Assembly: GCA_013822015.1 (NCBI GenBank)
Contig: PNJU01000001.1
Location: forward strand, 16,797-80,796
DNA length: 64,000 nucleotides
Reading direction: 5' to 3'
From: Candidatus Puniceispirillum sp.
Lineage (GTDB): Bacteria > Pseudomonadota > Alphaproteobacteria > Caedimonadales > UBA1908
Position numbers and translations under genes: made by a program. Below, in pieces: positions 5,091 to 59,372 of this stretch. Position 1 is the stretch's first letter, and every line of letters starts with the position of its first letter. The notes beneath the pieces were generated by a model. It was not told where the DNA came from. It was given only the letters and a program-made list of their open reading frames with translations, and did not search any database.

Positions 5091-6515
5091 CTAAAGGGCT
5101 TCCAGGCGAGGGGTCCTGTCCAAAAAGGCGTTGACCTTGCCCCATGCTTCTTTGGAAAGACCTGAATGTTCTAAAAATTGCCAACCTGCACGTTTTATAC
5201 TTTTCAAAGGCTCAGGATCGAAGGACCTGAGGCTAAAGCATTCATGAAGGAAAAGGTGACTAATTATTTCCACATCCCCAAGAGCCTTTGTGTCAAATGA
5301 ACGCAAAGCGCTGCATTGTCCCATAAAGTTTTCTGGAATTATTTCGACGTTTGAGAGGCCACCCGTATGAATGGACTCAAGTGCGATGCATTCTCCAAGA
5401 AAACTAAAGTCTATGGTTTTCACTTTTTGAAAGCCCCTTGTATCAAGGGATTTTAGGCGCGTGTCTCCGTACATAAAGCAATTACCGATATCTGTAACGT
5501 TTTGGAGTCCCCTGGTGTCTATGGACAAGAGATGTTTGCAGTCAACGAGAAACTCGTCGCTGATGTGCGTCACACTGGTCAATCCCTTGGTGCTGAGCGA
5601 CCGAAGAGACTGGCTGGACTGCAAAAAATCCCATCCAATGGCTGTGATCTTCCCATGGGGGTCCGCAAGCACCAAATGATGGAGATTTACGGGAAGATCA
5701 TCCTTTGACATGGTAAGTCCATCGGTTTGCACAAAGGTATCATCATCAAGGGCCAGCACCACCGTGTGGTCGTTACGGGTGGCCAGTAGGGTGTTGAGTC
5801 TCTCTTTATGCGCTTTAAAGTTCCCTGCACGCACCACAATGGCGTGGGCATGTGCGCTGAGTGCTTCCTCGTCCTGTGTCTTATCTGACCCACTAAAATA
5901 AAGGTGGGGGACGCTATTGCCAAGTTTGGCCACATAAGCGCCCACGGCAAGAAGGGTCTTTTCACTCACCGTGTCTTGCACCAAGATCTGGGGGAGGGCC
6001 GCTAAAACGCACGACAGTGGCGCCTCGTCTTTTGGTGCCTTTGCACCAAAAAGAGACGCCCTCCATGACGCAACAATTCCCTCATCCCCCTGTAAATCCT
6101 TGGCACTCAAAAGACGTGCACCTTCAGGGTAAGCGCTTGCACCCGCACAAACATGTTCAAGGGGTACAAAACCCTTCTTTTCAAGATTTTGCGCCATAGT
6201 GAGCGTCAAAATTTCCTGAGCAATCTCGCGTTTTTGGGCGGCAGGTGAAGTATCATAGAGATGGGCCGATAAATCAGCAGATGGACCGTGAAGTCCCTCT
6301 AAAATCTCATGCCATTGGCTGCACACGAGGGATGCACGGCCAATGTCGCCAGGCTCAAGATAAGACAAAACCTTTGTTGTGATTTCAGTAGGCACTAAGG
6401 CAAAAGGATCCCCTCTTTCCTCAACCACGTCCGTCGCACACACAGAAAAACCAAATACCAAACCAAGAAAAGATGCATTACGCAACAATTTAAGCAAGAT
6501 TTTAATCCTAAACAA
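5091..6515 (-). CDS. secreted F-box domain protein with C-terminal 25-residue leucine-rich repeats (eukaryote-like effector candidate)
   Basis: Signal-like N-terminus. LVPTEITTKVLSYLEPGDIGRASLVCSQWHEIL fits the F-box consensus LPxEI..IL.yL...DL.....VCk.W. Six repeats of the form LxS(L/F)DTxG(L/F)xxVxxIxxxFxxxCxx follow. A spot count gave about 42% G+C. Confidence 0.75.
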   Translation of the reverse strand: MFRIKILLKLLRNASFLGLVFGFSVCATDVVEERGDPFALVPTEITTKVLSYLEPGDIGRASLVCSQWHEILEGLHGPSADLSAHLYDTSPAAQKREIAQEILTLTMAQNLEKKGFVPLEHVCAGASAYPEGARLLSAKDLQGDEGIVASWRASLFGAKAPKDEAPLSCVLAALPQILVQDTVSEKTLLAVGAYVAKLGNSVPHLYFSGSDKTQDEEALSAHAHAIVVRAGNFKAHKERLNTLLATRNDHTVVLALDDDTFVQTDGLTMSKDDLPVNLHHLVLADPHGKITAIGWDFLQSSQSLRSLSTKGLTSVTHISDEFLVDCKHLLSIDTRGLQNVTDIGNCFMYGDTRLKSLDTRGFQKVKTIDFSFLGECIALESIHTGGLSNVEIIPENFMGQCSALRSFDTKALGDVEIISHLFLHECFSLRSFDPEPLKSIKRAGWQFLEHSGLSKEAWGKVNAFLDRTPRLEAL

Positions 6516-26444: not shown

Positions 26445-27206
26445 ATGTCTAGCCAGATCCGCACACAGCTCAGCGACCTCTTAAATAGCAACACAATGCA
26501 CGGCTTTATTATTGCCATTGTTCTTTGCAACGGCGTTGTTTTGGGCCTGCGCACGGAACCAACCCTTGAGGCGCATCTGGGAGAGTTTCTCAGTTTGCTT
26601 GATAACCTGACCATTGGTCTGCTCATTGGTGAGGTGCTCCTCAGGTTTATGTTAACGGGATCGCATTTTTTCAAGCGAGGTTGGAATATCTTTGACGCCG
26701 TGATCCTGTCCTTGTCTGTTTTTGCCATTCTCTATAATGTCCCTGTTTTGGCGGCGCTGCGTATCATGCTGCTCTTTCGCATCATTGAGCTCATCCCCAC
26801 CATGAAACATGTGGTGGAGGCCATTAAGCGCGCAGTAGAAGGGCTCACCAATGCGGTTATTCTGCTCCTTGTGGTGTTCTATACCTTCTCCGTTGCTGCC
26901 ACCCACCTCTTTGGCACCATTGCGGGCGATCACTTCGGCAATGTGGGGCGTGCCATGTTTACACTCTTTCAAGTCATGGCCTTTGACAACCTTGGTGACA
27001 TCATCCGCCCGCTCATGGAAAAGCAGACCTGGGCGTGGGCCTTCTTTGTGGTCTTTCTGATTCTGACGGCGTTCTCGATTTTGAACCTCTTCATTGGTAT
27101 CATTGTCCAAGCCATGCAAGACGCCTCTAACGCCTTGGCAAAACACAAGAAAGTGACCCCAAACACCCAGAGCGCCGCCACGCCCCCTGCGGCAACAAAG
27201 GAGTAG
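26445..27206 (+). CDS. single-domain voltage-gated-like cation channel (BacNav/NaChBac family) with an atypical pore
   Basis: Six-TM layout. S4-like LAALRIMLLFRIIELIPTMK. The pore FTLFQVMAFDNLGDIIRP aligns with the NavAb FTLFQVMTLESWSMGIVRP as I recall it. Confidence 0.7.
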   Translation: MSSQIRTQLSDLLNSNTMHGFIIAIVLCNGVVLGLRTEPTLEAHLGEFLSLLDNLTIGLLIGEVLLRFMLTGSHFFKRGWNIFDAVILSLSVFAILYNVPVLAALRIMLLFRIIELIPTMKHVVEAIKRAVEGLTNAVILLLVVFYTFSVAATHLFGTIAGDHFGNVGRAMFTLFQVMAFDNLGDIIRPLMEKQTWAWAFFVVFLILTAFSILNLFIGIIVQAMQDASNALAKHKKVTPNTQSAATPPAATKE

Positions 27207-31840: not shown

Positions 31841-31880
31841 GCCCGAGGTCTAAAAAGCTCCTTCCTCGGGCTGTTATTTC
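31841..31880 (+). terminator. candidate terminator after the amine oxidase gene
   Basis: GCCCGAGG / CCTCGGGC stem followed by TGTTATTTCT. Confidence 0.45.
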
Positions 31881-31971
31881 TAAAAAAATTTGACAAACAG
31901 AACAGAAACGCCTATATCAACATTGCCCCAGTGGTATTTTTAACCTTTCTTAACGAAAGAAATTGAGACCC

Positions 31972-33792
31972 ATGACCATTTTTAATCGCAAATCCCAGGC
32001 ACTTGCCCTCCTGATGCTGACCGCTTCCTTTGGCGCAGGAACCCTTGAGGCAAGCACCGCAAAAGTGGCGCGCCCTATGGCGCACGATTTCAAAGTGGAG
32101 CCTTTCAAGACTGGGTCACTGGCGACTCCTAAAAAGAAGGATCCTCAGCAACAGGCGCTGGATGACATGATCCAGTCTCTGTGTGACGCCTTCTATAAAT
32201 CTATTCTTGAGCGCTCCGGCGACATTGTCCGCGTGCAAAAAGGTTACGCGGCAGGCGCAGGATCCGTAGGCTCATTTGGACGCGTTGCGCCTGAATTTGC
32301 CCCACGTACACAGCCCCGTAAGATGAATTTTGACCCACTTGTGGTATTGCAGCAGCTTTTGGACAGTGTTTCACAAAGCCCATCGCGTGCACCAGCTGCA
32401 CCCTCCTTTGCGCCGCCTCCACCGCCACCACCTCCAGTATTTGCTCAACGCGGCCCCCTCGTGATCCGCCGCGGACAAGCGCCCAACCCGCATCTTCAGG
32501 CGGCCAATGCAGCTCGCAACAGTGTCATTAACATGGGCGACTTAATGAATCGTGCGGCTGCCATGAGCGCTCGCCGAGGCGGCGGCGATGTGGTGATTCC
32601 TCCACGCCAAAATGGGCCAAACCCCTTCCAAGCGGTTCAGTTGCGCTCACGCACGCCCCAAACCCCCATGCAGGTGCATGATACGTCCACGAACGAGCTG
32701 GCAACTGTTTTTGCAGCTATGAACCGCAACAGAGCTAGCGCGCCCGTACCGGGTCAAGCGGCCACGCAGCCCAGCTTTGTGGGCATGGCGCCATCTGCGG
32801 TACGCGCCCTCATGCAGCAACAAAACGCAGCAAACCCCGCACCACGACGCAATTTCCGCGCACGCCCTGCAGTGACGATACCTTCGGCTACGCAGCCCGC
32901 AACCATTGCGGCACCAGCGGTGGCCGCGCAAGCACAAGTCCAGGTTCAGCCAAATGCGCCCGTGACACCAGTTGCAGCACAACCCCTCGCGCAGACAGGT
33001 CCTGTGCCTGTCACACCTAGCGTGGCACAGGGCGCAACACCTCCACCACCGCCCCCTCCCTACATTGCAAGATTGTCGGCAGTCCTTGGTGCAGCAGATC
33101 CCGGCAACCAAGACGCAGCCCTTCGCATTGCACAAAGTGCCCAACGTGCGCCGCTCTTGTCCCAGCTGTCACAGGGTAACCTCATGGCGGGACTTAGGCG
33201 CACAAGCTCACAGCAAACCATAACGCCAACACCTGTGACGCCAGCGCCTCAGGCCTCTCAGTCTTTGGGTCAATTATTTGTATCGCTTCTGGCGGGCAAT
33301 GCGTCCACGCAACAAACGCCAACGGCACGCCCAGTCATTGACCTAGACGCCGTGCGTAGAGAGCAAGAGGCCCGTGAGGCTGAGAACGCACAAAGGCAGG
33401 CCGCGGCGCGCGCCCGTGCTGAGCAGCAACACCTCGAGCGCATTGCACGTGAAGAAGCCGAGCGTCAGGAACGTGCAGAGCAAACACGCCGAGCGCAAGC
33501 CAACGCAAGTAGACAACAGGCCCTCGCCATGGCGCAAGAACCTGATGAGAATGCGCCGTCCGGCAGAGCTGTTTTGGCAAGTATCACCAGCTTTAACCTG
33601 AGCAACTTAAGATCTATTGCTGCGCATCCGGTGGCGCCTGTGGCCCCCCCGCCTCCCTCGCAACTCGACGCAGAGCGCCTTGAGCAAGCAAGGACTCAAA
33701 GCCACTTACAAGCGACTCTTGTTGGTAGAAGAGCTGCCATGGCCATCGACAGTGATGACGAGGACGATGGTGACGACGACTTCGATTGGTAG
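31972..33792 (+). CDS. proline-rich secreted protein with WH2-like motifs and a WASP-type connector-acidic (CA) C-terminus; putative Arp2/3 nucleation-promoting factor mimic
   Basis: Signal-like N-terminus. Poly-Pro tracts at 32413..32436 and 33040..33060. WH2-like APLLSQLSQGNLMAGLRRT (33148..33204) and GRAVLASITSFNLSNLRSI (33562..33618). C-terminus LQATLVGRRAAMAIDSDDEDDGDDDFDW. Confidence 0.6.
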   Translation: MTIFNRKSQALALLMLTASFGAGTLEASTAKVARPMAHDFKVEPFKTGSLATPKKKDPQQQALDDMIQSLCDAFYKSILERSGDIVRVQKGYAAGAGSVGSFGRVAPEFAPRTQPRKMNFDPLVVLQQLLDSVSQSPSRAPAAPSFAPPPPPPPPVFAQRGPLVIRRGQAPNPHLQAANAARNSVINMGDLMNRAAAMSARRGGGDVVIPPRQNGPNPFQAVQLRSRTPQTPMQVHDTSTNELATVFAAMNRNRASAPVPGQAATQPSFVGMAPSAVRALMQQQNAANPAPRRNFRARPAVTIPSATQPATIAAPAVAAQAQVQVQPNAPVTPVAAQPLAQTGPVPVTPSVAQGATPPPPPPPYIARLSAVLGAADPGNQDAALRIAQSAQRAPLLSQLSQGNLMAGLRRTSSQQTITPTPVTPAPQASQSLGQLFVSLLAGNASTQQTPTARPVIDLDAVRREQEAREAENAQRQAAARARAEQQHLERIAREEAERQERAEQTRRAQANASRQQALAMAQEPDENAPSGRAVLASITSFNLSNLRSIAAHPVAPVAPPPPSQLDAERLEQARTQSHLQATLVGRRAAMAIDSDDEDDGDDDFDW

Positions 33793-33840: not shown

Positions 33841-33985
33841 AAGTGAAGAGCACACCACGCAATGGATTTTAGGGCACGCACCCTTTTGACGACCACCTTC
33901 ACCACCGCTGGGTCGCAGCGGTAATTCATTCTCTTTCCCTTTTGATGTTCATTTTTTCCCATTATACTTTTTAGGAGTGTGTGCC

Positions 33986-44125: not shown

Positions 44126-44365
44126 GCAGTCGCGCAAAAAGGCAGGGCAACAAACTTAAGCCTTCCTCAACAGTCCATAAACTTACAAAATCTCTCAACC
44201 AAACCTAGCACGTCCCACAAAATCATTTCTCAGATATGGTCCACTGACATCCACGCATTCCTCCAGGACGAAGTGAGGCTCAACCTTATCTTAAAATGCC
44301 GTTGAAAATAAGAGCCATTTGGGGTATCAGTGCATGTCGCCCGTTGTCGTGGAGTAATCAGGTAT

Positions 44366-46753
44366 ATGACTGTCAATACTAGTAGTAATAGGGCGCCTAA
44401 TGGCGCCACTCAACAATTTGTTGAACAGTTAAACCAGCAGAAAACCAGAATCCGCTTCGCCGTGGCACTCGTCCTTTCGGGGTTTGCCGCCCTCGCTTAT
44501 CAGGTTGCGTGGCAACGCGTCCTGACGCAGGTCATTGGTTCCGATGCTATCTCGATGGTCTTGGTCGTCACTATTTTCATGATTTGCCTCGGCATAGGCT
44601 CCGAGCTTGCAAAGTTCCTCGTCGCACAATCTCAGGCTCGTGCGTTGCGGCTGTACGCCACCATTGAGGTTTTGGTGGCCGCCTATGGCATTATCTCTAT
44701 ACCCCTTCTTAGAACCATTAATGCCAGCACAGGTGCAGTTACGGGCGATTCACTGACCGCAGATTTTTTGCTCAACCTCGGGCTGCTATCTCTGCCTATT
44801 ATCGGAATGGGGCTCACGACGCCACTGATCGTGCACGTCGCGAAAGAAAGTCTGTCCAACGTGGGTCGTACAGTGGGCCTTCTCTACGGCTGGAATATTG
44901 CCGGTGCTGCCATTGGCTCACTCCTAACAGGCTTGTTACTGATTGAGCTGTTTGGGCTTCGAGGCACGACGTTGTTCGCGGCTGGCGCAAACGTAGTCGC
45001 GGCAGCAATAGCGATCAAGGGGCTGCGGCTGATACCGCATACCAGCCAAGGGACCAATGCCACCGCGACTGGGACAAAGCCAGCTAAGATTCCAACGACA
45101 GCAGCCATTTCCGCTGTTCTTTTTGGTTTTGGTACGCTGGCGATTCAAATCATTTTCTTTCGTGTTCTTTCAAACTACTTAACCCTTTCAACGATCGTAT
45201 TCCCCGTCCTTCTATGCGCTTATCTGTGCCTCATGTCGGCCGGTCAATGGGTCGGCGGGCAATTGGCCGACCGATACAGCGAACGGCTTCCTTATGTCAT
45301 AGCCGCTCTGTTCGCTTTGGGTGCAGTTCTTTTGCTTGCTGCACTTGCATTTCCTCCAGAATGGGCTGCCTACTTCAACGCACTTCGCTTCTCCAGCTTT
45401 AATGGTCAACTTGTCGCACCTGAATTCGCTCATCTGATTGGCGACCCATCGCCCATAACAGTCTTCCTGTTTTCTTTCGGCATGATGCTCTCAGTGATGG
45501 CGTGGTCTGGCCTCTTCCCAGTGATGTTCAGACTGATCACGCAACGTATTGAAGACGCAGGAAATCGGTTTGCTCGCATCTACACTCTTTACACTGTTGG
45601 AAACGTAGTCGGCGCTTTTGCTTGCGGCATCTTTTTACTACCGTACTTAGGCACAGGCCTAAGTGCATTGGCCACTGTGTTGGTTGTAGCGCTTGGCTCA
45701 CTATTTGTGCTGTTAGGTAATAGCTCTTCATCTCACGGTTCCCGGGCCTATATCCTCTTGGCGGCGGGCGCGGTTGCAGGGCTCTTGATGCCCACAGACT
45801 ATTACCGTTCATTTAAGTTTGGAAAGTACGAAGTCGCCGAAGTTTTTGAAGGTAGAACTGGGGTAGCTACGGTTGTTCCCACCTCACGCTTCTACACAAT
45901 CGTTGATGTAAACCGCACTGCATCGGCATCTGCTTTGAATGCTGACCCTGGACCAGCTGATCTATATGAGGCCTGGAGATGGAATCACACCGATTTGATG
46001 GCTCTTGATCCGAGTTTCCGTCCAAAAAACATCCTAGTCATCGGCATTGGGCACGCATATTTGATCGATGCCATGTTGGATCTGCCGTTCGTTGAAAAGA
46101 TTACCGTCGTTGACATATCCGCGGAAGTTGTCGAAGCTGTAAAAAAATACACAAAGACGTCAGCAAAGCGGATTTTCACTGACCCTCGTGTGGAAATTGT
46201 CATCGGCGATGGTCGGCGTTTTGTACAATCTGCCATCAAACACGGCGTGCATTATGACCTGATTCAGAATAAGATCAACGAGCCATGGCATGCTGGCGGT
46301 GGCAATCTATTCACCGAGGAGTTTTTCTTAGAAGAAAAGAAGCTCTTGACGCCCGGCGGCTATTTGAGTACGCGCCCATTAACTGGTCATCTGACGGATG
46401 GACTAAAGGTGTTCCACAACGCGATGTGGACCGGCTACTACCATATGTATTTTAAGAATGGAGAAGTGACAATCGCAGACACAGCTATTGTCAGCCCAGA
46501 TATAAAGGATGCGTGGTACACTGAATTGGCGGGCAAAGGACCTGTCCTAGCCCATGGCCGTGACACACTACAGGTGGCTGTGTTCAAAGAAGTCCCGGAC
46601 GCGTTGCGTACTGACCCAAACACGGATGATTACCCCACGTTTGAGTATTACTGGGTAAGACAACTTTTAGGAAACTGGGTCTCACCGCGCGTGAGCTTCC
46701 AAGATCTTGATTTCAAGCCTTACTTCCGAGACATCCCGGTAAAAATCCAGTGA
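44366..46753 (+). CDS. fused multi-TM (MFS-like) / spermidine synthase-like protein
   Basis: The N-terminal ~480 aa are hydrophobic (LSGFAALAYQVAWQRVL...). The C-terminus has a class I MTase/aminopropyltransferase fold (ILVIGIGHAYLIDAML...VVDISAEVV...DPRVEIVIGDGRRFV...YDLI). Spot counts gave about 47-48% G+C. Confidence 0.8.
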   Translation: MTVNTSSNRAPNGATQQFVEQLNQQKTRIRFAVALVLSGFAALAYQVAWQRVLTQVIGSDAISMVLVVTIFMICLGIGSELAKFLVAQSQARALRLYATIEVLVAAYGIISIPLLRTINASTGAVTGDSLTADFLLNLGLLSLPIIGMGLTTPLIVHVAKESLSNVGRTVGLLYGWNIAGAAIGSLLTGLLLIELFGLRGTTLFAAGANVVAAAIAIKGLRLIPHTSQGTNATATGTKPAKIPTTAAISAVLFGFGTLAIQIIFFRVLSNYLTLSTIVFPVLLCAYLCLMSAGQWVGGQLADRYSERLPYVIAALFALGAVLLLAALAFPPEWAAYFNALRFSSFNGQLVAPEFAHLIGDPSPITVFLFSFGMMLSVMAWSGLFPVMFRLITQRIEDAGNRFARIYTLYTVGNVVGAFACGIFLLPYLGTGLSALATVLVVALGSLFVLLGNSSSSHGSRAYILLAAGAVAGLLMPTDYYRSFKFGKYEVAEVFEGRTGVATVVPTSRFYTIVDVNRTASASALNADPGPADLYEAWRWNHTDLMALDPSFRPKNILVIGIGHAYLIDAMLDLPFVEKITVVDISAEVVEAVKKYTKTSAKRIFTDPRVEIVIGDGRRFVQSAIKHGVHYDLIQNKINEPWHAGGGNLFTEEFFLEEKKLLTPGGYLSTRPLTGHLTDGLKVFHNAMWTGYYHMYFKNGEVTIADTAIVSPDIKDAWYTELAGKGPVLAHGRDTLQVAVFKEVPDALRTDPNTDDYPTFEYYWVRQLLGNWVSPRVSFQDLDFKPYFRDIPVKIQ

Positions 46754-54148: not shown

Positions 54149-54901
54149 TTAGTCTTGCCACACCAAAAAGGAAGGATCTATTGATCTTGGCACCGAACTG
54201 TTCTGGGACCCAAAAATTTGGGCAACGGCATTTCTGAGCACGCTGCCCTCTTCCACGGGATGACCGGTCATATCTGATCCCAGATCTGCCGACGCGCTTT
54301 GTACGACTTGCGCCGGATCGGCGGATTGGCCAGCCCCTTCCAAGAGCGGCATTGGGTCACCCCTTAAAGTAGCTGGCACGACTTTGTCAAAGAGCTGCGG
54401 CAGGGCGCTCCTCAAATGGGGGTATGGCAGTGGGCTGCGTGGCGCCAAAGGTCTTGCTCTTTTCTTGGTGCGCTGGGGCACGAAGCTAGACCCCATGGGC
54501 GCCACAGCCATGATCATGTTTGTCACGCTTTCGCATCCTTCTGGCAGGGCCCATGGCCTCACCTGTGGCAAAACGCTAGGTGCCTGGGCGCAACCGCTGT
54601 CAGTGTCAGCGCGCTCTCCGTCACCTTGCATGTGAAAAAATCGCAAGTCCGCCTCGATCAAACTCCCCTCAAACAGATCAGCCATGGGCACGCGCTCATG
54701 AATAGGGGAAACGGCATTCTCCCGCACCACTTGCACGTCAAGGTCAGGGAAATCATCTGGCGTAAGAATATACTGTTCCTGCATGGGAGAAGACGGCGCA
54801 CCGTACACAGCGTTGAGGGAGTGCCACCAAAGGGCGTCCCCGTCACTGGCATATCCGGAAACAGGGGAAAAAAGCAAACATCCGAAAAGAAAAATTCTCA
54901 T
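54149..54901 (-). CDS. hypothetical secreted protein
   Basis: ATG 54901 gives the signal peptide MRIFLFGCLLFSPVSGYA|S. Proline-rich, with no recognisable domain. Confidence 0.5.
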   Translation of the reverse strand: MRIFLFGCLLFSPVSGYASDGDALWWHSLNAVYGAPSSPMQEQYILTPDDFPDLDVQVVRENAVSPIHERVPMADLFEGSLIEADLRFFHMQGDGERADTDSGCAQAPSVLPQVRPWALPEGCESVTNMIMAVAPMGSSFVPQRTKKRARPLAPRSPLPYPHLRSALPQLFDKVVPATLRGDPMPLLEGAGQSADPAQVVQSASADLGSDMTGHPVEEGSVLRNAVAQIFGSQNSSVPRSIDPSFLVWQD

Positions 54902-55059
54902 GCGAAACACCAAAATCACAGCTCAGTCATTGGTATTTTAGTGGTAGTTCCCGCAAGAAATATCAATCTTTTTTGTCAAAATTAATATTCTCAAGCGTGC
55001 AATTGATCGTGATGGTCTCTGTAACAAGCACGATGCGCTGATCACCGTGCCAAACCATG

Positions 55060-55662
55060 CTACAGACGTTCTCTCACGATGGACAAAAGCAGCGTTGTAT
55101 ATGAAAGCGTTAATGACTCTTGCGAGGGCGCGAAAGAAGTGCGGCCCGCAGGCTCTGCCTGACCTTGTACAAACGCCTTGTCTATCCTGTCATTTTGAAA
55201 GATTAGAAGCGTTCGGTGAGCAAACCTAAGAGCATGGTCAGCTGGGTCGCCATAACCAGACCAGTTACTTGCAAAAAGATGGCGTGTTTGTAACTCACAG
55301 AGCATCGCACACACGATATCCGGATCACCGGCTTTGTGGGCGCCTTGGAGACGTGCGCGCAAATTCTCAATCTCCTCGGTGCTCGCCAAAGCGCGAACCT
55401 CGTCATAGGCTTTGTCATTATGACTGACCACTGTGTTCAACAAATCTTGGGCAGAGATCTCCTCCGGACACACGCCCCCCACGTACTTCTCTAGCATGAC
55501 GTAAGCGCTCAGTGCCTCTTCACAGATATAAAAATTGTGATATGTCGACGCGTTTTCGCATGGGTTTTTCGTGCTTGGAAACGGATCCTCTTGTGTTGCT
55601 TTGCAAGGAACATTCAACACAGAAAAAAACACCAAAGACGCAGCCGTAAAACGTTTTAGCAT
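55060..55662 (-). CDS. secreted protein, paralog family Q member 1
   Basis: MLKRFTAASLVFFSVLNVPCKATQEDPFP... The core EEALSAYVMLEKYVGGVCPEEISAQDLLNTVVSHNDKAYDEVRALASTEEIENLRARLQ closely matches the 58767..59372 product. Confidence 0.65.
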   Translation of the reverse strand: MLKRFTAASLVFFSVLNVPCKATQEDPFPSTKNPCENASTYHNFYICEEALSAYVMLEKYVGGVCPEEISAQDLLNTVVSHNDKAYDEVRALASTEEIENLRARLQGAHKAGDPDIVCAMLCELQTRHLFASNWSGYGDPADHALRFAHRTLLIFQNDRIDKAFVQGQAEPAGRTSFAPSQESLTLSYTTLLLSIVRERL

Positions 55663-55710
55663 TTTGATTCCCCCTCTCAATTGCCCCAACGCTGTAAAAC
55701 AGAAGGGCCC

Positions 55711-56226
55711 TTAGTACGGCACCTCAACCACGAGGCGATCAGCCTCTTCGTCAGGCGCAAGAAGCATGCTCAGCTGACTCTTTGTTTCGGCCAAACACAC
55801 AAATGACGTCACCTCATCGAGGTACGGTGATCGGCTTTGCGCCACACATCTGCGCGCAATCTCGGTGAGGAGCCTCACAACCTTGTCCACGGGCTCAGCG
55901 CCACCCACCAAACGTTGTCGCAGGTTATCCACATCTTCCTCGGGCGCCTTTTTACGCATGTCATCATAACTGGCATCTCCCGGCCACAACACAGCGTTCA
56001 TCACATCCTGGGGAGAGAGCCCCATCTTGCGCCACCCGACGTTCCACTTTCTCATGATGGCGTAGGCGCGAAGGGCGCTTTCAACCCTATCGTCTAGTTT
56101 CGGTGAGGCTTCTGCTTGCGCGCGGGGTGGCGCGCCGCAAGGCAAGTCTTCCTCAAACGCTGCGCCACAAGGCTGGATCAAGAATGAAACCAAGAGAAGG
56201 GATGGGACAGAAAGATAGCTATGCAT
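55711..56226 (-). CDS. secreted protein, paralog family Q member 2 (divergent)
   Basis: ATG 56226 gives MHSYLSVPSLLLVSFLIQPCGAAFEED. ALRAYAIMRKW...SPQDVMNAVL...YDDMRKKAPEEDVDNLRQRL aligns with Q1 and Q4. Confidence 0.6.
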   Translation of the reverse strand: MHSYLSVPSLLLVSFLIQPCGAAFEEDLPCGAPPRAQAEASPKLDDRVESALRAYAIMRKWNVGWRKMGLSPQDVMNAVLWPGDASYDDMRKKAPEEDVDNLRQRLVGGAEPVDKVVRLLTEIARRCVAQSRSPYLDEVTSFVCLAETKSQLSMLLAPDEEADRLVVEVPY

Positions 56227-56332
56227 GGGAAAACTCCTTACAAAATCACGTGATCTTTTCACATAATGTCTGAAATGCCAACATATTAAAAAAGCATCAT
56301 GAGCGCACATAGATCCTGGCGCGTGTGAGCAC

Positions 56333-56983
56333 CTAAGACGACGCACCCAAAGCAATGGTGCCCACGATGGTGGCGTGTGACGCGCGAAGAGCTATCAAGA
56401 TATAGGACAAGCCATCTTCTGGAGTCATAGCCTTTTTTGAAGTGTAGGCATCGCGCAGCACGTTGGTCCCCGCGCACAAAACCGCATCCACCAAGGACAA
56501 CGTCACCTCATCATAATTTAAGGAAGTCTTCCTCAGTCGCGCTGGCATATCAAACGCTCTGTCCATACAAGGAGGCGAGACAATGTTTTGAAAAAGCGCA
56601 ATGCGTGTATCTTCATGGGTAACAAGCCGCTCAACCAATTGGCTCAAAATTGTCTGTTCCTTCGGGGATGCGTGACGACGCACTTTTTCTTTTTGCACCA
56701 TTTTATGGGGGTCAAAAGCAAGTTCTCCCGACAGAAAGAAAGTCGAAAGGCTGTCCTGTATATCTTGGGCGTGCAGCTGATTTTCTTGCCAATACCGCTC
56801 GCCCTTCAACACAACCGAAAGGAGCTGTAAAGCGTCATTTGTGCGCACTGGGTGATAATAAGAGGTGCGCGCACCTTGCACAGGCGCGTCGTCGTCCGCA
56901 CATGCGCTGCCATAACACATGTGGAGCCCACTGATGATCATCATGCCAACCATCCAAATATATTTTCTCGCTTTATGTATCAT
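56333..56983 (-). CDS. secreted protein, possibly a distant family Q member 3
   Basis: Signal-like N-terminus. NDALQLLSVVLKGERYW...AQDIQDSL shows weak similarity to the Q core. Confidence 0.45.
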   Translation of the reverse strand: MIHKARKYIWMVGMMIISGLHMCYGSACADDDAPVQGARTSYYHPVRTNDALQLLSVVLKGERYWQENQLHAQDIQDSLSTFFLSGELAFDPHKMVQKEKVRRHASPKEQTILSQLVERLVTHEDTRIALFQNIVSPPCMDRAFDMPARLRKTSLNYDEVTLSLVDAVLCAGTNVLRDAYTSKKAMTPEDGLSYILIALRASHATIVGTIALGASS

Positions 56984-57175
56984 CTGTTTTCCTTATACGT
57001 AAACGGGTTCAGACTTGCCTTAGGGGCACTTTGTATCAAACGACAGCCCTTTCGCCAAGATCAAAGCTTGTGCTAAACGCGAAAGGGCGCCCCTTCAAAC
57101 GCACCTAAAGACATTTCAGTAATTTATGTGCACACAGGACCTGCGTGACGTGAAACATCTGGCGCGGCACTGCGC

Positions 57176-58588
57176 TTAATCCCTGCGCACGCACTTGAAC
57201 GGTGTTTGAGCATACTCAGCCCGTGAAAGGGAGACCCATGTGCCATCGCCCATTTGTGATCCACGTGCGACAGATGCGCGCGTAGAGGTCGTGCTATCCT
57301 CATCAAATTTTTGCAAAGACGCGGCGGCGCTAGAGGCAACCTCTTCGCCATAAAGTTGTCCCACAGCCTTCAGCAGCATCCCTACCTCTCTCGTTGGCGT
57401 TTTCGTTAAACTACCCAACGCCGATGGCATGGTCAGGGAACCGCGCTTACGCGCAGCAGATACGTGAGATGCTGCCATCCACCGATCAACTGTGATGCTG
57501 GGTGCCGCGCTGCGTGAAGGGTGAACAGACTCCCGCAGTCTTTTCTGCCGCGCATTGCCTCCTAAAAAGACGGTTGTCGCACGTACAGGTACCAAAGAAG
57601 GCGTTCCTGGAGAAGGTGCCGTATAGCCAGGAGAAAGCTCCGCAATGATGGGAAGAAAGCTAGACGCATCACCACTTGGTGTGGGTAACGGCAGGGCATG
57701 TATTCTGCTTTCTTGTTCCAGACGCACAGTGAGGGCTGGAAAAATAGAGTTACTCAACTCATTGAGTGTTGTCATGACCACTTCTTGTGGAAAATCAGTC
57801 TGGGAAACCACATCTGCCACAATGGTTTGCCAATCTTCATGAAAGTAGGTTTTTTGATAGCTTTGCCACGCATGTGTCATGACCCTCTCACGCGTTCTGC
57901 CTGTGTTGAGTCCAAGCCTTTTATTCGCCTCATGCAAAGAGCCCATGAAGTGATCAGTGGGTTTATGCCCATTGGAGCGCCCTTTCCATAAATGATACCA
58001 GTTATCACACCAAGCAGCATCAACGTCAAAAGCATCATATATTTTACGCATGACATGCTCTTGTTCATCATGGGAATTCCCCATCAATGCATTTGTAACG
58101 CACAGATAAATGAAACAATTCAACCGCTCGGTACGATCTTGCCCCTCCAAGACAAGCAAGTCACCTGCTTGTGAGGCATTTGCCTGTACCACAAACTGAT
58201 CAAGTTTGCGTTCTGTGTCTATCCACTTCTTTGTTTTTATTAAAACTTGATTTTTGGTCGTAAACGTAAATCCATCGATACCACCGTGTCGCGCCATAAA
58301 ATGGCATACGTTTCTCAAATCTTCATACTCAACATCCTGCGCGCAGTCGGCCTGTGCGGCATCACGTGCACTTGTCACAGGGTGCAAGCCCAGATCTTGC
58401 GCAAAACAACCCATTGGGGTCGTGGAGCGTTCTGGTGTCAAAATGTCTCGGCGCGGTGTCGTTGACGCGAAATCCTGTCGCGTTGGTATTCCATCAAACC
58501 ACAAAGAATCGTCAGATCCATATACAGAAGTCAGGAAAGAGAGAGAACAAGAATATAAATCGAGACACAAAAAACGCACATACATCAT
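57176..58588 (-). CDS. hypothetical secreted protein (~470 aa)
   Basis: ATG 58588 gives MMYVRFLCLDLYSCSLSFLTSVYG|S. No recognisable domain. The long ORF opens at 58711. Confidence 0.5.
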   Translation of the reverse strand: MMYVRFLCLDLYSCSLSFLTSVYGSDDSLWFDGIPTRQDFASTTPRRDILTPERSTTPMGCFAQDLGLHPVTSARDAAQADCAQDVEYEDLRNVCHFMARHGGIDGFTFTTKNQVLIKTKKWIDTERKLDQFVVQANASQAGDLLVLEGQDRTERLNCFIYLCVTNALMGNSHDEQEHVMRKIYDAFDVDAAWCDNWYHLWKGRSNGHKPTDHFMGSLHEANKRLGLNTGRTRERVMTHAWQSYQKTYFHEDWQTIVADVVSQTDFPQEVVMTTLNELSNSIFPALTVRLEQESRIHALPLPTPSGDASSFLPIIAELSPGYTAPSPGTPSLVPVRATTVFLGGNARQKRLRESVHPSRSAAPSITVDRWMAASHVSAARKRGSLTMPSALGSLTKTPTREVGMLLKAVGQLYGEEVASSAAASLQKFDEDSTTSTRASVARGSQMGDGTWVSLSRAEYAQTPFKCVRRD

Positions 58589-58766
58589 ACAATAAATGTA
58601 ATAGATGCCAACTTTTTTAACTATATGGGGAAGACGAAGAAGGAGGGATATCCATTCATAATACATTGACTCAAGATCATCACGCGCAAGGCACGTTACT
58701 AAAAGCATCATAAAACGCGCATGACTTTGTCTCTCCTTCTACTATTTCTTCTCACCCATTATGGTT

Positions 58767-59372
58767 TCATGGGCCACCGTACCCAATCCACAAACGGTGC
58801 TGTGGATCTGGCGCAAAGGCTTGTCTGTCTGCGCGTTTCTTCTCACCTGGAAAAAGACCCTCATCAACGACGTCAGCAAGAAAGAGGGCAAGGGTCCGGT
58901 GGGCAAACCCGAGAGCGTAGGCGGCAGGATCAGCGAATTCAGGGCGAAGTCCAGTCTGCTGTTTTGCAAAAAAGAAGCGTGGGTGGGTCACACTATAGAC
59001 CGCCAGAGCAATATCTGGATCACGGGCTTTATGGGCGCTCTGGAGACGTTCGCGCAAGTCCTCAACCTCTTCGCTGCTGGCCAACGCGCGAACCCTGTCA
59101 TAGTTCCTGTCACCATGGCTTATCACTGTGTCCAGTAGGTCTTGGGACGAGATCTCTTCCGAACATACACCCCTCATGTACTTCTCCAGCATGACATAGG
59201 AACGCAGTGCCTCTTGGGATATATCCAAGTTCACCCTTGGCAGCGCTTGCATCATCCTCACAGGGTTTGGACGCGGCACACCATGGGGAAACGGGTCCTC
59301 TTGGGTTGCCGAACACGGCGCACTCAAGACCACAAGAAAAGTCAAAGACACACAAATAAAACGCTTTAGCAT
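58767..59372 (-). CDS. secreted protein, paralog family Q member 4
   Basis: MLKRFICVSLTFLVVLSAPCSATQEDPFP... Its core and its 5' region (GAATCAAAATGCTAAA) match Q1 at both DNA and protein level. Confidence 0.65.
   Translation of the reverse strand: MLKRFICVSLTFLVVLSAPCSATQEDPFPHGVPRPNPVRMMQALPRVNLDISQEALRSYVMLEKYMRGVCSEEISSQDLLDTVISHGDRNYDRVRALASSEEVEDLRERLQSAHKARDPDIALAVYSVTHPRFFFAKQQTGLRPEFADPAAYALGFAHRTLALFLADVVDEGLFPGEKKRADRQAFAPDPQHRLWIGYGGP

Follow-up and report, generated by a model that had tools for sequence, protein, structure and literature searches.

Does a bacterium of the order Caedimonadales encode a protein that imitates the eukaryotic activators of the Arp2/3 complex? The question is raised by one gene in a 64,000-nucleotide stretch of GenBank assembly GCA_013822015.1 (contig PNJU01000001.1, positions 16,797 to 80,796), which was analysed as a whole and is called the window below. 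Translation of positions 31972-33792 on the plus strand gives a protein of 606 amino acids (aa) plus a stop codon, the longest open reading frame (ORF) at that place, and this protein is 100% identical to hypothetical protein C0514_00280 of an NCBI metagenome-assembled genome (MAG) labelled "Candidatus Puniceispirillum sp." A preliminary description of the DNA had read the protein as a possible mimic of nucleation-promoting factors (NPFs) of the WASP and RickA type, with two WH2-like actin-monomer motifs, two polyproline tracts, a coiled coil and, at the C-terminus, a connector-acidic (C-A) tail. The ORF and every motif quoted in that description were recovered on retranslation, and the positions assigned to the two proline tracts and the two WH2-like motifs map correctly (Table 1). 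The tail had been misplaced, as the quoted 31-aa string QSHLQATLVGRRAAMAIDSDDEDDGDDDFDW begins at 33697 and position 33709 begins QATLVG. The answer proposed here, tentatively and from sequence, is that the gene may belong to a protist symbiont of the Caedimonadales (Holosporales-type) and encode an intrinsically disordered effector that is directed at the host and would be an NPF mimic.

The connector-acidic tail and the rest of the protein

The argument starts from the last residues of the protein. The acidic motif, DSDDEDDGDDDFDW followed directly by the stop codon, places 10 Asp or Glu among the last 16 residues and ends in Trp606, which is kept in all four orthologs. When all stop-terminated stretches of at least 60 aa were collected from the six frames of the window (463 stretches), this was the only one with seven or more Asp or Glu in its last 16 residues. 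Placed without gaps against WAVE1, the segment LQATLVGRRAAMAIDSDDEDDGDDDFDW is identical at 9 of 28 positions, and the Trp is the 19th residue after the Arg pair in both proteins; in RickA the distance is 20. The core reads RRAAM.I.DSD here and RRAAIEVSDS in RickA, with RRAA[IM]x[VI] common to the window protein and R. sibirica RickA. In a reference alignment of verprolin-connector-acidic (VCA) regions, three residues of the C-A part never vary (Arg, Asp and Trp), and the protein has all three in the right order, and the hydrophobic position six residues before the Arg pair in the connector helix is occupied by Gln. AlphaFold2 models the tail as a helix (residues 564-591) followed by disordered coil (593-606).

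Profiles of C-A regions, built without the query, were used for a more quantitative comparison. A profile search supplied 120 genuine WASP/WAVE C-termini and another search real RickA C-termini (one of the latter is named "Arp2/3 complex-activating protein RickA"), and the VCA sequences of N-WASP, WASP and WAVE1 were confirmed against PDB chains 6uhc_H, 1ej5_A, 2a3z_C and 3p8c_D. With E-values that apply to one sequence, the WAVE profile gave 3.1 bits for the window protein (E 0.005) and 8.1 bits for ortholog P0004 (E 1.4e-4), and a combined WAVE and RickA profile gave 3.8-9.1 bits across the four orthologs (E 0.0032 to 7.5e-5). The alignment falls on residues 581-606 (ATLVGRRAAMAI-DSDDEDDGDDDfDW), the extreme C-terminus. 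Among known factors, the WAVE profile gave 15-27 bits for RickA, -1.7 bits for WASP and -13 bits for N-WASP, the RickA profile gave 23 bits for WAVE1, and the WASP profile gave 5.5 bits for WAVE1. The scores of the window family are weak and still at least as high as those of true WASP, N-WASP and WAVE C-A regions against each other's profiles. The likeness of this C-A region to WAVE is roughly that between true NPF classes, and far below that of RickA. Among the known factors themselves, mutual detection is strong between the C-A regions of RickA and of vertebrate WAVE (over about 33 residues) and barely occurs between those of WAVE and of WASP or N-WASP, which makes the RickA C-A region specifically WAVE-type at the sequence level.

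Shuffling gave a measure of how easily such a match arises. When the 30 residues before the acidic tail were shuffled and the tail itself was held fixed, 0.26% of the shuffles reached the real WAVE profile score, and when the whole tail was shuffled the fraction was 0.08%. A C-A match this strong would be found in about 0.3-0.5% of sequences, a figure that is a rough inference and not a computed probability. The full combination should be rarer: the match ends at the C-terminus, holds the only Trp of the protein, follows two runs of at least seven Pro, is joined in orthologs by a second DDDW module and lies in the genome of a protist symbiont. For one genome we judge this combination to lie well beyond chance; for a scan of very many proteins that judgement is not safe, because this look was the reason the protein was selected. 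On spacing, profiles and shuffles, the C-A tail of the preliminary description therefore holds as a motif-level resemblance to WAVE and RickA.

The acidic module is repeated within the family. In orthologs P0003 and P0004 the first WH2-like helix is followed by a further acidic motif, DLDDDWETDADAD (DLDDDWETD), and self-comparison showed that the motif of this insert, APVIDLDDDWETDADADADAD, resembles the terminal MAIDSDDEDDGD.D.DW. Self-comparison also revealed a tandem duplication, in which PVIDLDAVRREQEARE (at 454) resembles PPSQLDAERLEQARTQ (at 561). Every Trp in the family sits in a D-rich motif, and the sole Trp of the window protein is its last residue.

The rest of the protein is mostly disordered. 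No globular domain appears in the AlphaFold2 model of the whole protein, whose mean predicted local distance difference test score (pLDDT) is 42, and isolated helices stand exactly where the motifs were proposed; the model is too disordered for a fold search. The composition is heavily biased (Ala 17.5%, Pro 11.2%, Gln 9.6%). Judged by eye, and in agreement with the preliminary description, the N-terminus, MTIFNRKSQALALLMLTASFGAGTLEA followed by S, is laid out in the n, h and c regions of a Sec signal peptide; P0002 has the same signal and P0003 one with a single residue changed. The region that follows it (residues 28-146) has no Pfam or NCBIfam match. The invariant TPKKKDP of this region (32125-32145, residues 52-58, present in all orthologs) resembles by eye a monopartite nuclear localisation signal, a likeness that is of interest because some Caedimonadaceae are intranuclear. 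Both polyproline tracts are present, as Pro8 and Pro7, and runs of at least five Pro occur among the 463 window stretches only as these two; the recruitment of partners that had been suggested for them is a candidate role. The charged coiled coil fared less well, as just 6 of the 64 residues of the long helix at 458-521 are hydrophobic, and a single charged helix fits better.

Table 1. Features of the 606-aa gene and its flanks, in window coordinates
Feature	Position	Strand	Residues	Basis or remark
Terminator-like hairpin closing the upstream amine-oxidase gene	31856..31872	+		Hairpin detection
Possible own promoter, TTGACA, 17 nt, TATATC	31890..31918	+		By eye
Coding sequence, 606 aa plus stop, apparently monocistronic	31972..33792	+	1-606	Translation; identity to C0514_00280
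Sec-type signal peptide, likely cleavage between LEA and S	31972..32052	+	1-27	Read by eye
Most conserved N-terminal region, invariant TPKKKDP	32053..32409	+	28-146	Predicted helix 58-95
Pro8 tract, candidate profilin or SH3 docking site	32413..32436	+	148-155	Invariant in alignment
About 200 disordered residues with short helices			about 156-356	AlphaFold2
Pro7 tract	33040..33060	+	357-363	
WH2-like motif 1, APLLSQLSQGNLMAGLRRT	33148..33204	+	393-411	Predicted helix 393-408
Ortholog insert site, 31 aa with second acidic-Trp motif APVIDLDDDWETDADADADAD in P0003 and P0004	33267..33268	+		
Long Ala/Arg/Glu/Gln helix, probably a single charged helix that serves as spacer	33343..33534	+	458-521	pLDDT about 90
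WH2-like motif 2, GRAVLASITSFNLSNLRSI, thymosin-beta4-like spacing	33562..33618	+	531-549	Helix 532-539
Short PPPP between WH2-like motif 2 and the connector helix	33646..33657	+	559-562	
Connector (C) motif core, LQATLVGRRAAMAI	33706..33747	+	579-592	Inside predicted helix 564-591; RR586-587 invariant
Acidic (A) motif, DSDDEDDGDDDFDW, ending in the only Trp of the protein	33748..33789	+	593-606	
Terminator-like hairpin downstream of the gene	33904..33922	+		Hairpin detection

Family, organism and genomic setting

Homologs of the protein are very few. A search of 5.8 billion proteins returned just three others, at 90, 77 and 71% identity, and all of them keep the same gene order of amine oxidase, 606-aa gene, SDF symporter and response-regulator-PAS-GGDEF-EAL protein. 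Four or five independent assemblies preserve both the reading frame and the synteny. More diverged orthologs were sought in genome contigs and in JGI metagenomes, with a peptide pattern and a back-translated DNA pattern of the C motif, and only the CAED1-type copy was found again. A eukaryotic protein with SRCR repeats that appeared in an exhaustive search was judged spurious, a repeat-amplified match to the proline/Ala segment.

The family is under selection and is changing quickly. The ratio of nonsynonymous to synonymous substitution rates (dN/dS) is 0.23-0.27 for the whole gene versus 0.02-0.08 for the two downstream neighbour genes, so the protein is under purifying selection and changes several times faster than its neighbours. 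Host-interaction proteins often evolve faster. Synonymous divergence (dS) against the loci L001, L003 and L004 is a mosaic, 0.05-0.17 in the N-terminal third and about 1 or saturated in the middle, which suggests recombination between alleles. The 31-aa indel with the DDDW motif separates two allele types.

One homolog comes from the MAG CAED1 (GCA_020161545.1) and is syntenic with the window. CAED1 is placed by its authors, and by GTDB, in Alphaproteobacteria, Caedimonadales, UBA1908, and is a 1.88 Mb assembly of 52.8% GC from an enhanced biological phosphorus removal (EBPR) bioreactor (PMC9723799). The window comes from the same genus-level group, because its SDF symporter and GGDEF-EAL regulator are 94-99% identical to those of CAED1, and the NCBI name "Candidatus Puniceispirillum sp." of the source MAG is probably a misassignment. 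Described Caedimonadaceae live inside ciliates, dinoflagellates and amoebae, and Holosporales are obligate associates of eukaryotes; Holospora obtusa has an actin-based trafficking mechanism, and the molecular determinants of Holosporales infection are only partly understood according to a 2025 review (PMC11909080). H. obtusa also has signal-peptide-bearing periplasmic proteins that are released or exposed to the host (PMC9866348). This context helps the interpretation of the window protein as an NPF mimic.

The 606-aa gene looks monocistronic, with terminator-like hairpins on both sides. The promoter picked out by eye upstream failed the promoter rule, as position 6 of its -10 hexamer is not T. 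The gene sits between the amine oxidase and the SDF (dicarboxylate) symporter, and pntAB and the GGDEF-EAL regulator are also neighbours. Several other genes of the window deserve mention in their own right. Positions 5091-6515 (minus strand) encode a protein of 474 aa in which Pfam recognises an F-box-like domain (E 2.3e-9); by eye, its N-terminus is hydrophobic and its C-terminal half contains repeats of the leucine-rich type, each about 24 aa long. It is a second eukaryote-type candidate effector of the window. F-box domains are typical of bacteria that manipulate eukaryotic hosts. At 22701-26234 (minus strand), a 1177-aa protein has a Sec-like signal (MKKKITSLLITSSFVVFCATGAVFA) and three AAASSSG repeats near its C-terminus; its GDGNCGLYS and GNHFNRV segments recall the Cys and His boxes of OTU cysteine proteases, and an OTU reading was rejected as neither Pfam nor NCBIfam supports it, even at E<=10 on the N-terminal 287 aa. 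Five consecutive ORFs at 54149-59372 (minus strand; 256, 209, 214, 216 and 511 aa) and one of 201 aa have no Pfam match and are possibly lineage-specific. An 807-aa protein at 44330-46753 (plus strand) combines a major facilitator superfamily (MFS) transporter region with a spermidine-synthase-like domain, and a 253-aa protein at 26445-27206 (plus strand) has an Ion_trans domain (E 2.9e-38) of a voltage-gated-type cation channel and adjoins the pntAB transhydrogenase genes.

Weighing the possible functions

The sequence itself shows the motif anatomy; passage across the outer membrane, binding to Arp2/3 and delivery of actin are what we infer. A fuller proposal, somewhat less likely than not, is that one WAVE-type (helix)-C-A module, or two in tandem, arose independently in this Sec-exported and wholly disordered protein, which would activate Arp2/3 in the protist host. 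On the NPF-mimic reading, the protein would be exported by the Sec pathway and its signal peptide cut after Ala27, and it would then reach the bacterial surface or the host cytosol by a type II system, by vesicles or by periplasmic release of the kind described for Holospora proteins. The C-terminal helix (LQATLVGRRAAMAI) and the acidic tail ending in Trp606 would dock on host Arp2/3 in the way of the WAVE and RickA C-A regions. Actin monomers may be supplied by the amphipathic helices further upstream (393-411 and 531-549), and profilin-actin or SH3 proteins may be brought in by the Pro8 and Pro7 tracts. The charged helix at 458-521 would space two duplicated modules, the first of which keeps its own acidic-Trp motif in two orthologs. 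The outcome would be local assembly of branched actin that aids uptake, intracellular movement or positioning of the symbiont.

A number of results weigh against this proposal. The two WH2-like motifs described at the outset were recognised neither by Pfam PF02205, which gave no match even at E<=10 on fragments, nor by a local WH2 profile of WASP, WAVE and RickA, which scored below 0.5 bits, aligned elsewhere and missed both motifs. A loose ELM-style WH2 expression does match motif 2 in all four orthologs and all positive controls, but it also matches 28% of protein shuffles and occurs about once per 606 aa in the ORFs of the window. Motif 1, whose helix part resembles LLDQIRQG and whose LRRT element is displaced, failed all three. 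The WH2-like motifs do not go beyond chance, and the verprolin (V) part of the proposed VCA layout is a visual resemblance only. The C-A E-values, from 0.005 to 7.5e-5, are not significant over about 2,000 proteins, and the protein was picked for its resemblance. The WAVE profile scores the true WASP and N-WASP C-A regions even lower, so a test of significance at the scale of a proteome has little power.

Homology and location also count against the proposal. Searches of Pfam (full protein, and fragments at E<=10), NCBIfam and PDB sequences returned nothing relevant, neither RickA, ActA and BimA nor the WASP family showed homology to the protein, and an exhaustive search of 1.84 billion proteins with a VCA profile of the last 87 positions found no relatives outside the protein's own cluster. 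The N-terminal domains of the WASP and WAVE family (WH1, GBD, Scar homology domain) were not detected by Pfam, and no member of that family appeared in the exhaustive search. The C-A likeness is thus mimicry or chance and not descent from a WASP-family gene. Conservation of the tail, which the preliminary description had named as a check, was rejected as evidence: the Trp and the Arg pair are invariant in the four orthologs, but the four are too close to test conservation. With a dS of 0.12-0.26, the C region has diverged little at synonymous sites too, so the near-invariance of the tail is weak evidence and proves little. Finally, the Sec signal predicts a periplasmic location, and no secretion-system genes were found within the 64-kb window.

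These weaknesses leave room for other functions. The protein could be a host-directed, disordered effector built from eukaryote-type short motifs with a target other than Arp2/3, a somewhat doubtful alternative in which the Pro tracts would bind SH3, WW or profilin modules and the acidic aromatic tail would be an element that docks to a different basic pocket, an export or chaperone signal, or a means of self-regulation. Disorder and proline tracts fit this account as well as they fit Arp2/3 activation, and so do the symbiont lineage, the neighbouring F-box protein and the faster evolution of the protein; the failure of the WH2 profiles and the marginal C-A scores also count in its favour. However, the order and spacing of helix, Arg pair, hydrophobic residue, acidic run and Trp are specifically those of WAVE and RickA, a second DDDW motif follows the first amphipathic helix in two orthologs, and no alternative motif class could be named that fits the terminal Trp. 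On general grounds, four further readings were rejected: an outer-membrane-protein C-terminal signature (there are no beta strands), a tail like that of single-stranded DNA-binding protein (ruled out by the export of the protein and its lack of an OB fold), an LC3-interacting region motif (which needs residues after the aromatic) and FliK (a Flg_hook domain is lacking).

An envelope or periplasmic protein without a host target, such as a TolA/TonB-like spacer or a storage or structural protein, is unlikely. Its low-complexity Pro/Ala/Gln segments and charged helix would be linkers and its C-A likeness a coincidence, and the Sec signal peptide, the lack of secretion-system genes nearby in the window, motif statistics that are not proteome-proof and a long Ala/Arg/Glu helix that recalls TolA domain II all agree with this. 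Yet no TolA, TonB, SPOR, LysM or other envelope domain and no folded C-terminal domain were detected, and the neighbours are an amine oxidase and a symporter rather than tol-pal or exbBD. Runs of seven or eight Pro and an acidic tail ending in Trp are not known as features of those families, and confinement to one narrow lineage would be unusual for core envelope machinery. It is more improbable again that the gene is a fast-evolving, lineage-specific ORF of no defined function whose motifs arose by chance from biased composition. The composition is indeed strongly biased and the family has just four close members in the sets of 5.8e9 and 1.84e9 proteins, but a dN/dS of 0.23-0.27 indicates purifying selection, the frame and synteny are kept in four or five assemblies, and shuffles that keep composition seldom reproduce the C-A match.

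If the NPF-mimic interpretation is true, the consequences would reach beyond this gene. Bacterial proteins with C-A motifs that activate Arp2/3 directly are known only from a small number of pathogens of animals (ActA, RickA and BimA of B. thailandensis), and no earlier report of an Arp2/3 activator in Holosporales or Caedimonadales was found in the literature. Beyond Listeria, Rickettsia and Burkholderia, the window protein would be the first mimic of an Arp2/3 activator, and its bearer a symbiont of unicellular eukaryotes. As a fourth, unrelated example it would show that mimicry of this kind has arisen again and again and that unicellular hosts are among its targets. For Holosporales it would also give a first molecular handle on actin-based trafficking, and a candidate open to testing for the movement inside cells that depends on actin in that group. 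Its export route would pass through the periplasm, unlike that of RickA, which raises the question of how a Sec-exported disordered protein reaches the host cytosol. Effectors of this kind are invisible to domain databases and are found just by reading short motifs. On motif-level evidence, the protein is a specific and cheaply testable lead in a poorly understood group of symbionts.

Comparison with known systems

The closest comparison is with RickA. The preliminary description had called the architecture RickA-like, which stands for the layout but not for homology, as RickA was absent from the homolog searches. Both proteins come from intracellular or intracellular-type alphaproteobacteria, and both have proline tracts, amphipathic actin-type helices, a WAVE-type C helix with an Arg pair, a Ser/Asp-rich acidic stretch and a Trp near the end; the R. 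sibirica core reads ...SIFARRAAIEVSDS...GNWSD and that of the window protein ...ATLVGRRAAMAIDSD...DFDW. However, the RickA C-A profile gives the window family just 1.4-4.5 bits, and the C-A region of RickA is far closer to WAVE (15-27 bits) than that of the window protein. The WH2 motifs of RickA are canonical (LRKV) whereas those of the window protein are not, RickA has about 40 basic residues after its Trp whereas the window protein ends at the Trp, and the window protein has a Sec signal whereas RickA has none (PMC11077975).

With the VCA regions of WAVE, WASP and N-WASP the window protein shares the order of helix, C helix and acidic tail with Trp, and with WAVE1 the distance from the Arg pair to the Trp. 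It differs from them in being bacterial and almost fully disordered, with a Sec signal and no WH1, GBD or Scar domain. B. thailandensis BimA and Listeria ActA are surface-exposed proteins with signal peptides that combine WH2-like and C-A-like motifs with proline repeats and drive Arp2/3-dependent actin assembly. In contrast to BimA, the window protein lacks an autotransporter barrel (the NCBIfam BimA models do not match and the AlphaFold2 model has no beta-rich C-terminal domain), and in contrast to ActA it lacks a C-terminal membrane anchor. Its C-A region lies at a free C-terminus, so any anchoring would be N-terminal or absent.

Within the same order-level lineage, the periplasmic 89-kDa protein of Holospora obtusa, for which two actin-binding motifs have been reported, becomes exposed outside the bacterium during infection (PMC9866348). 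A C-A motif has not been reported for the 89-kDa protein, and the two proteins are probably unrelated because the relatives of the window protein, in protein and contig searches, are limited to its own narrow cluster. From TolA and TonB the window protein differs in having neither their folded domain (by Pfam, NCBIfam and AlphaFold2) nor a tol-pal or exbBD context. In layout, the window protein works like RickA, WAVE, BimA or ActA and is a member of none of these families. Five features set it apart from the known NPFs, namely its Sec signal, a Trp at the very end, actin motifs that depart from the canonical form, a long and charged helix as spacer and a duplicated module.

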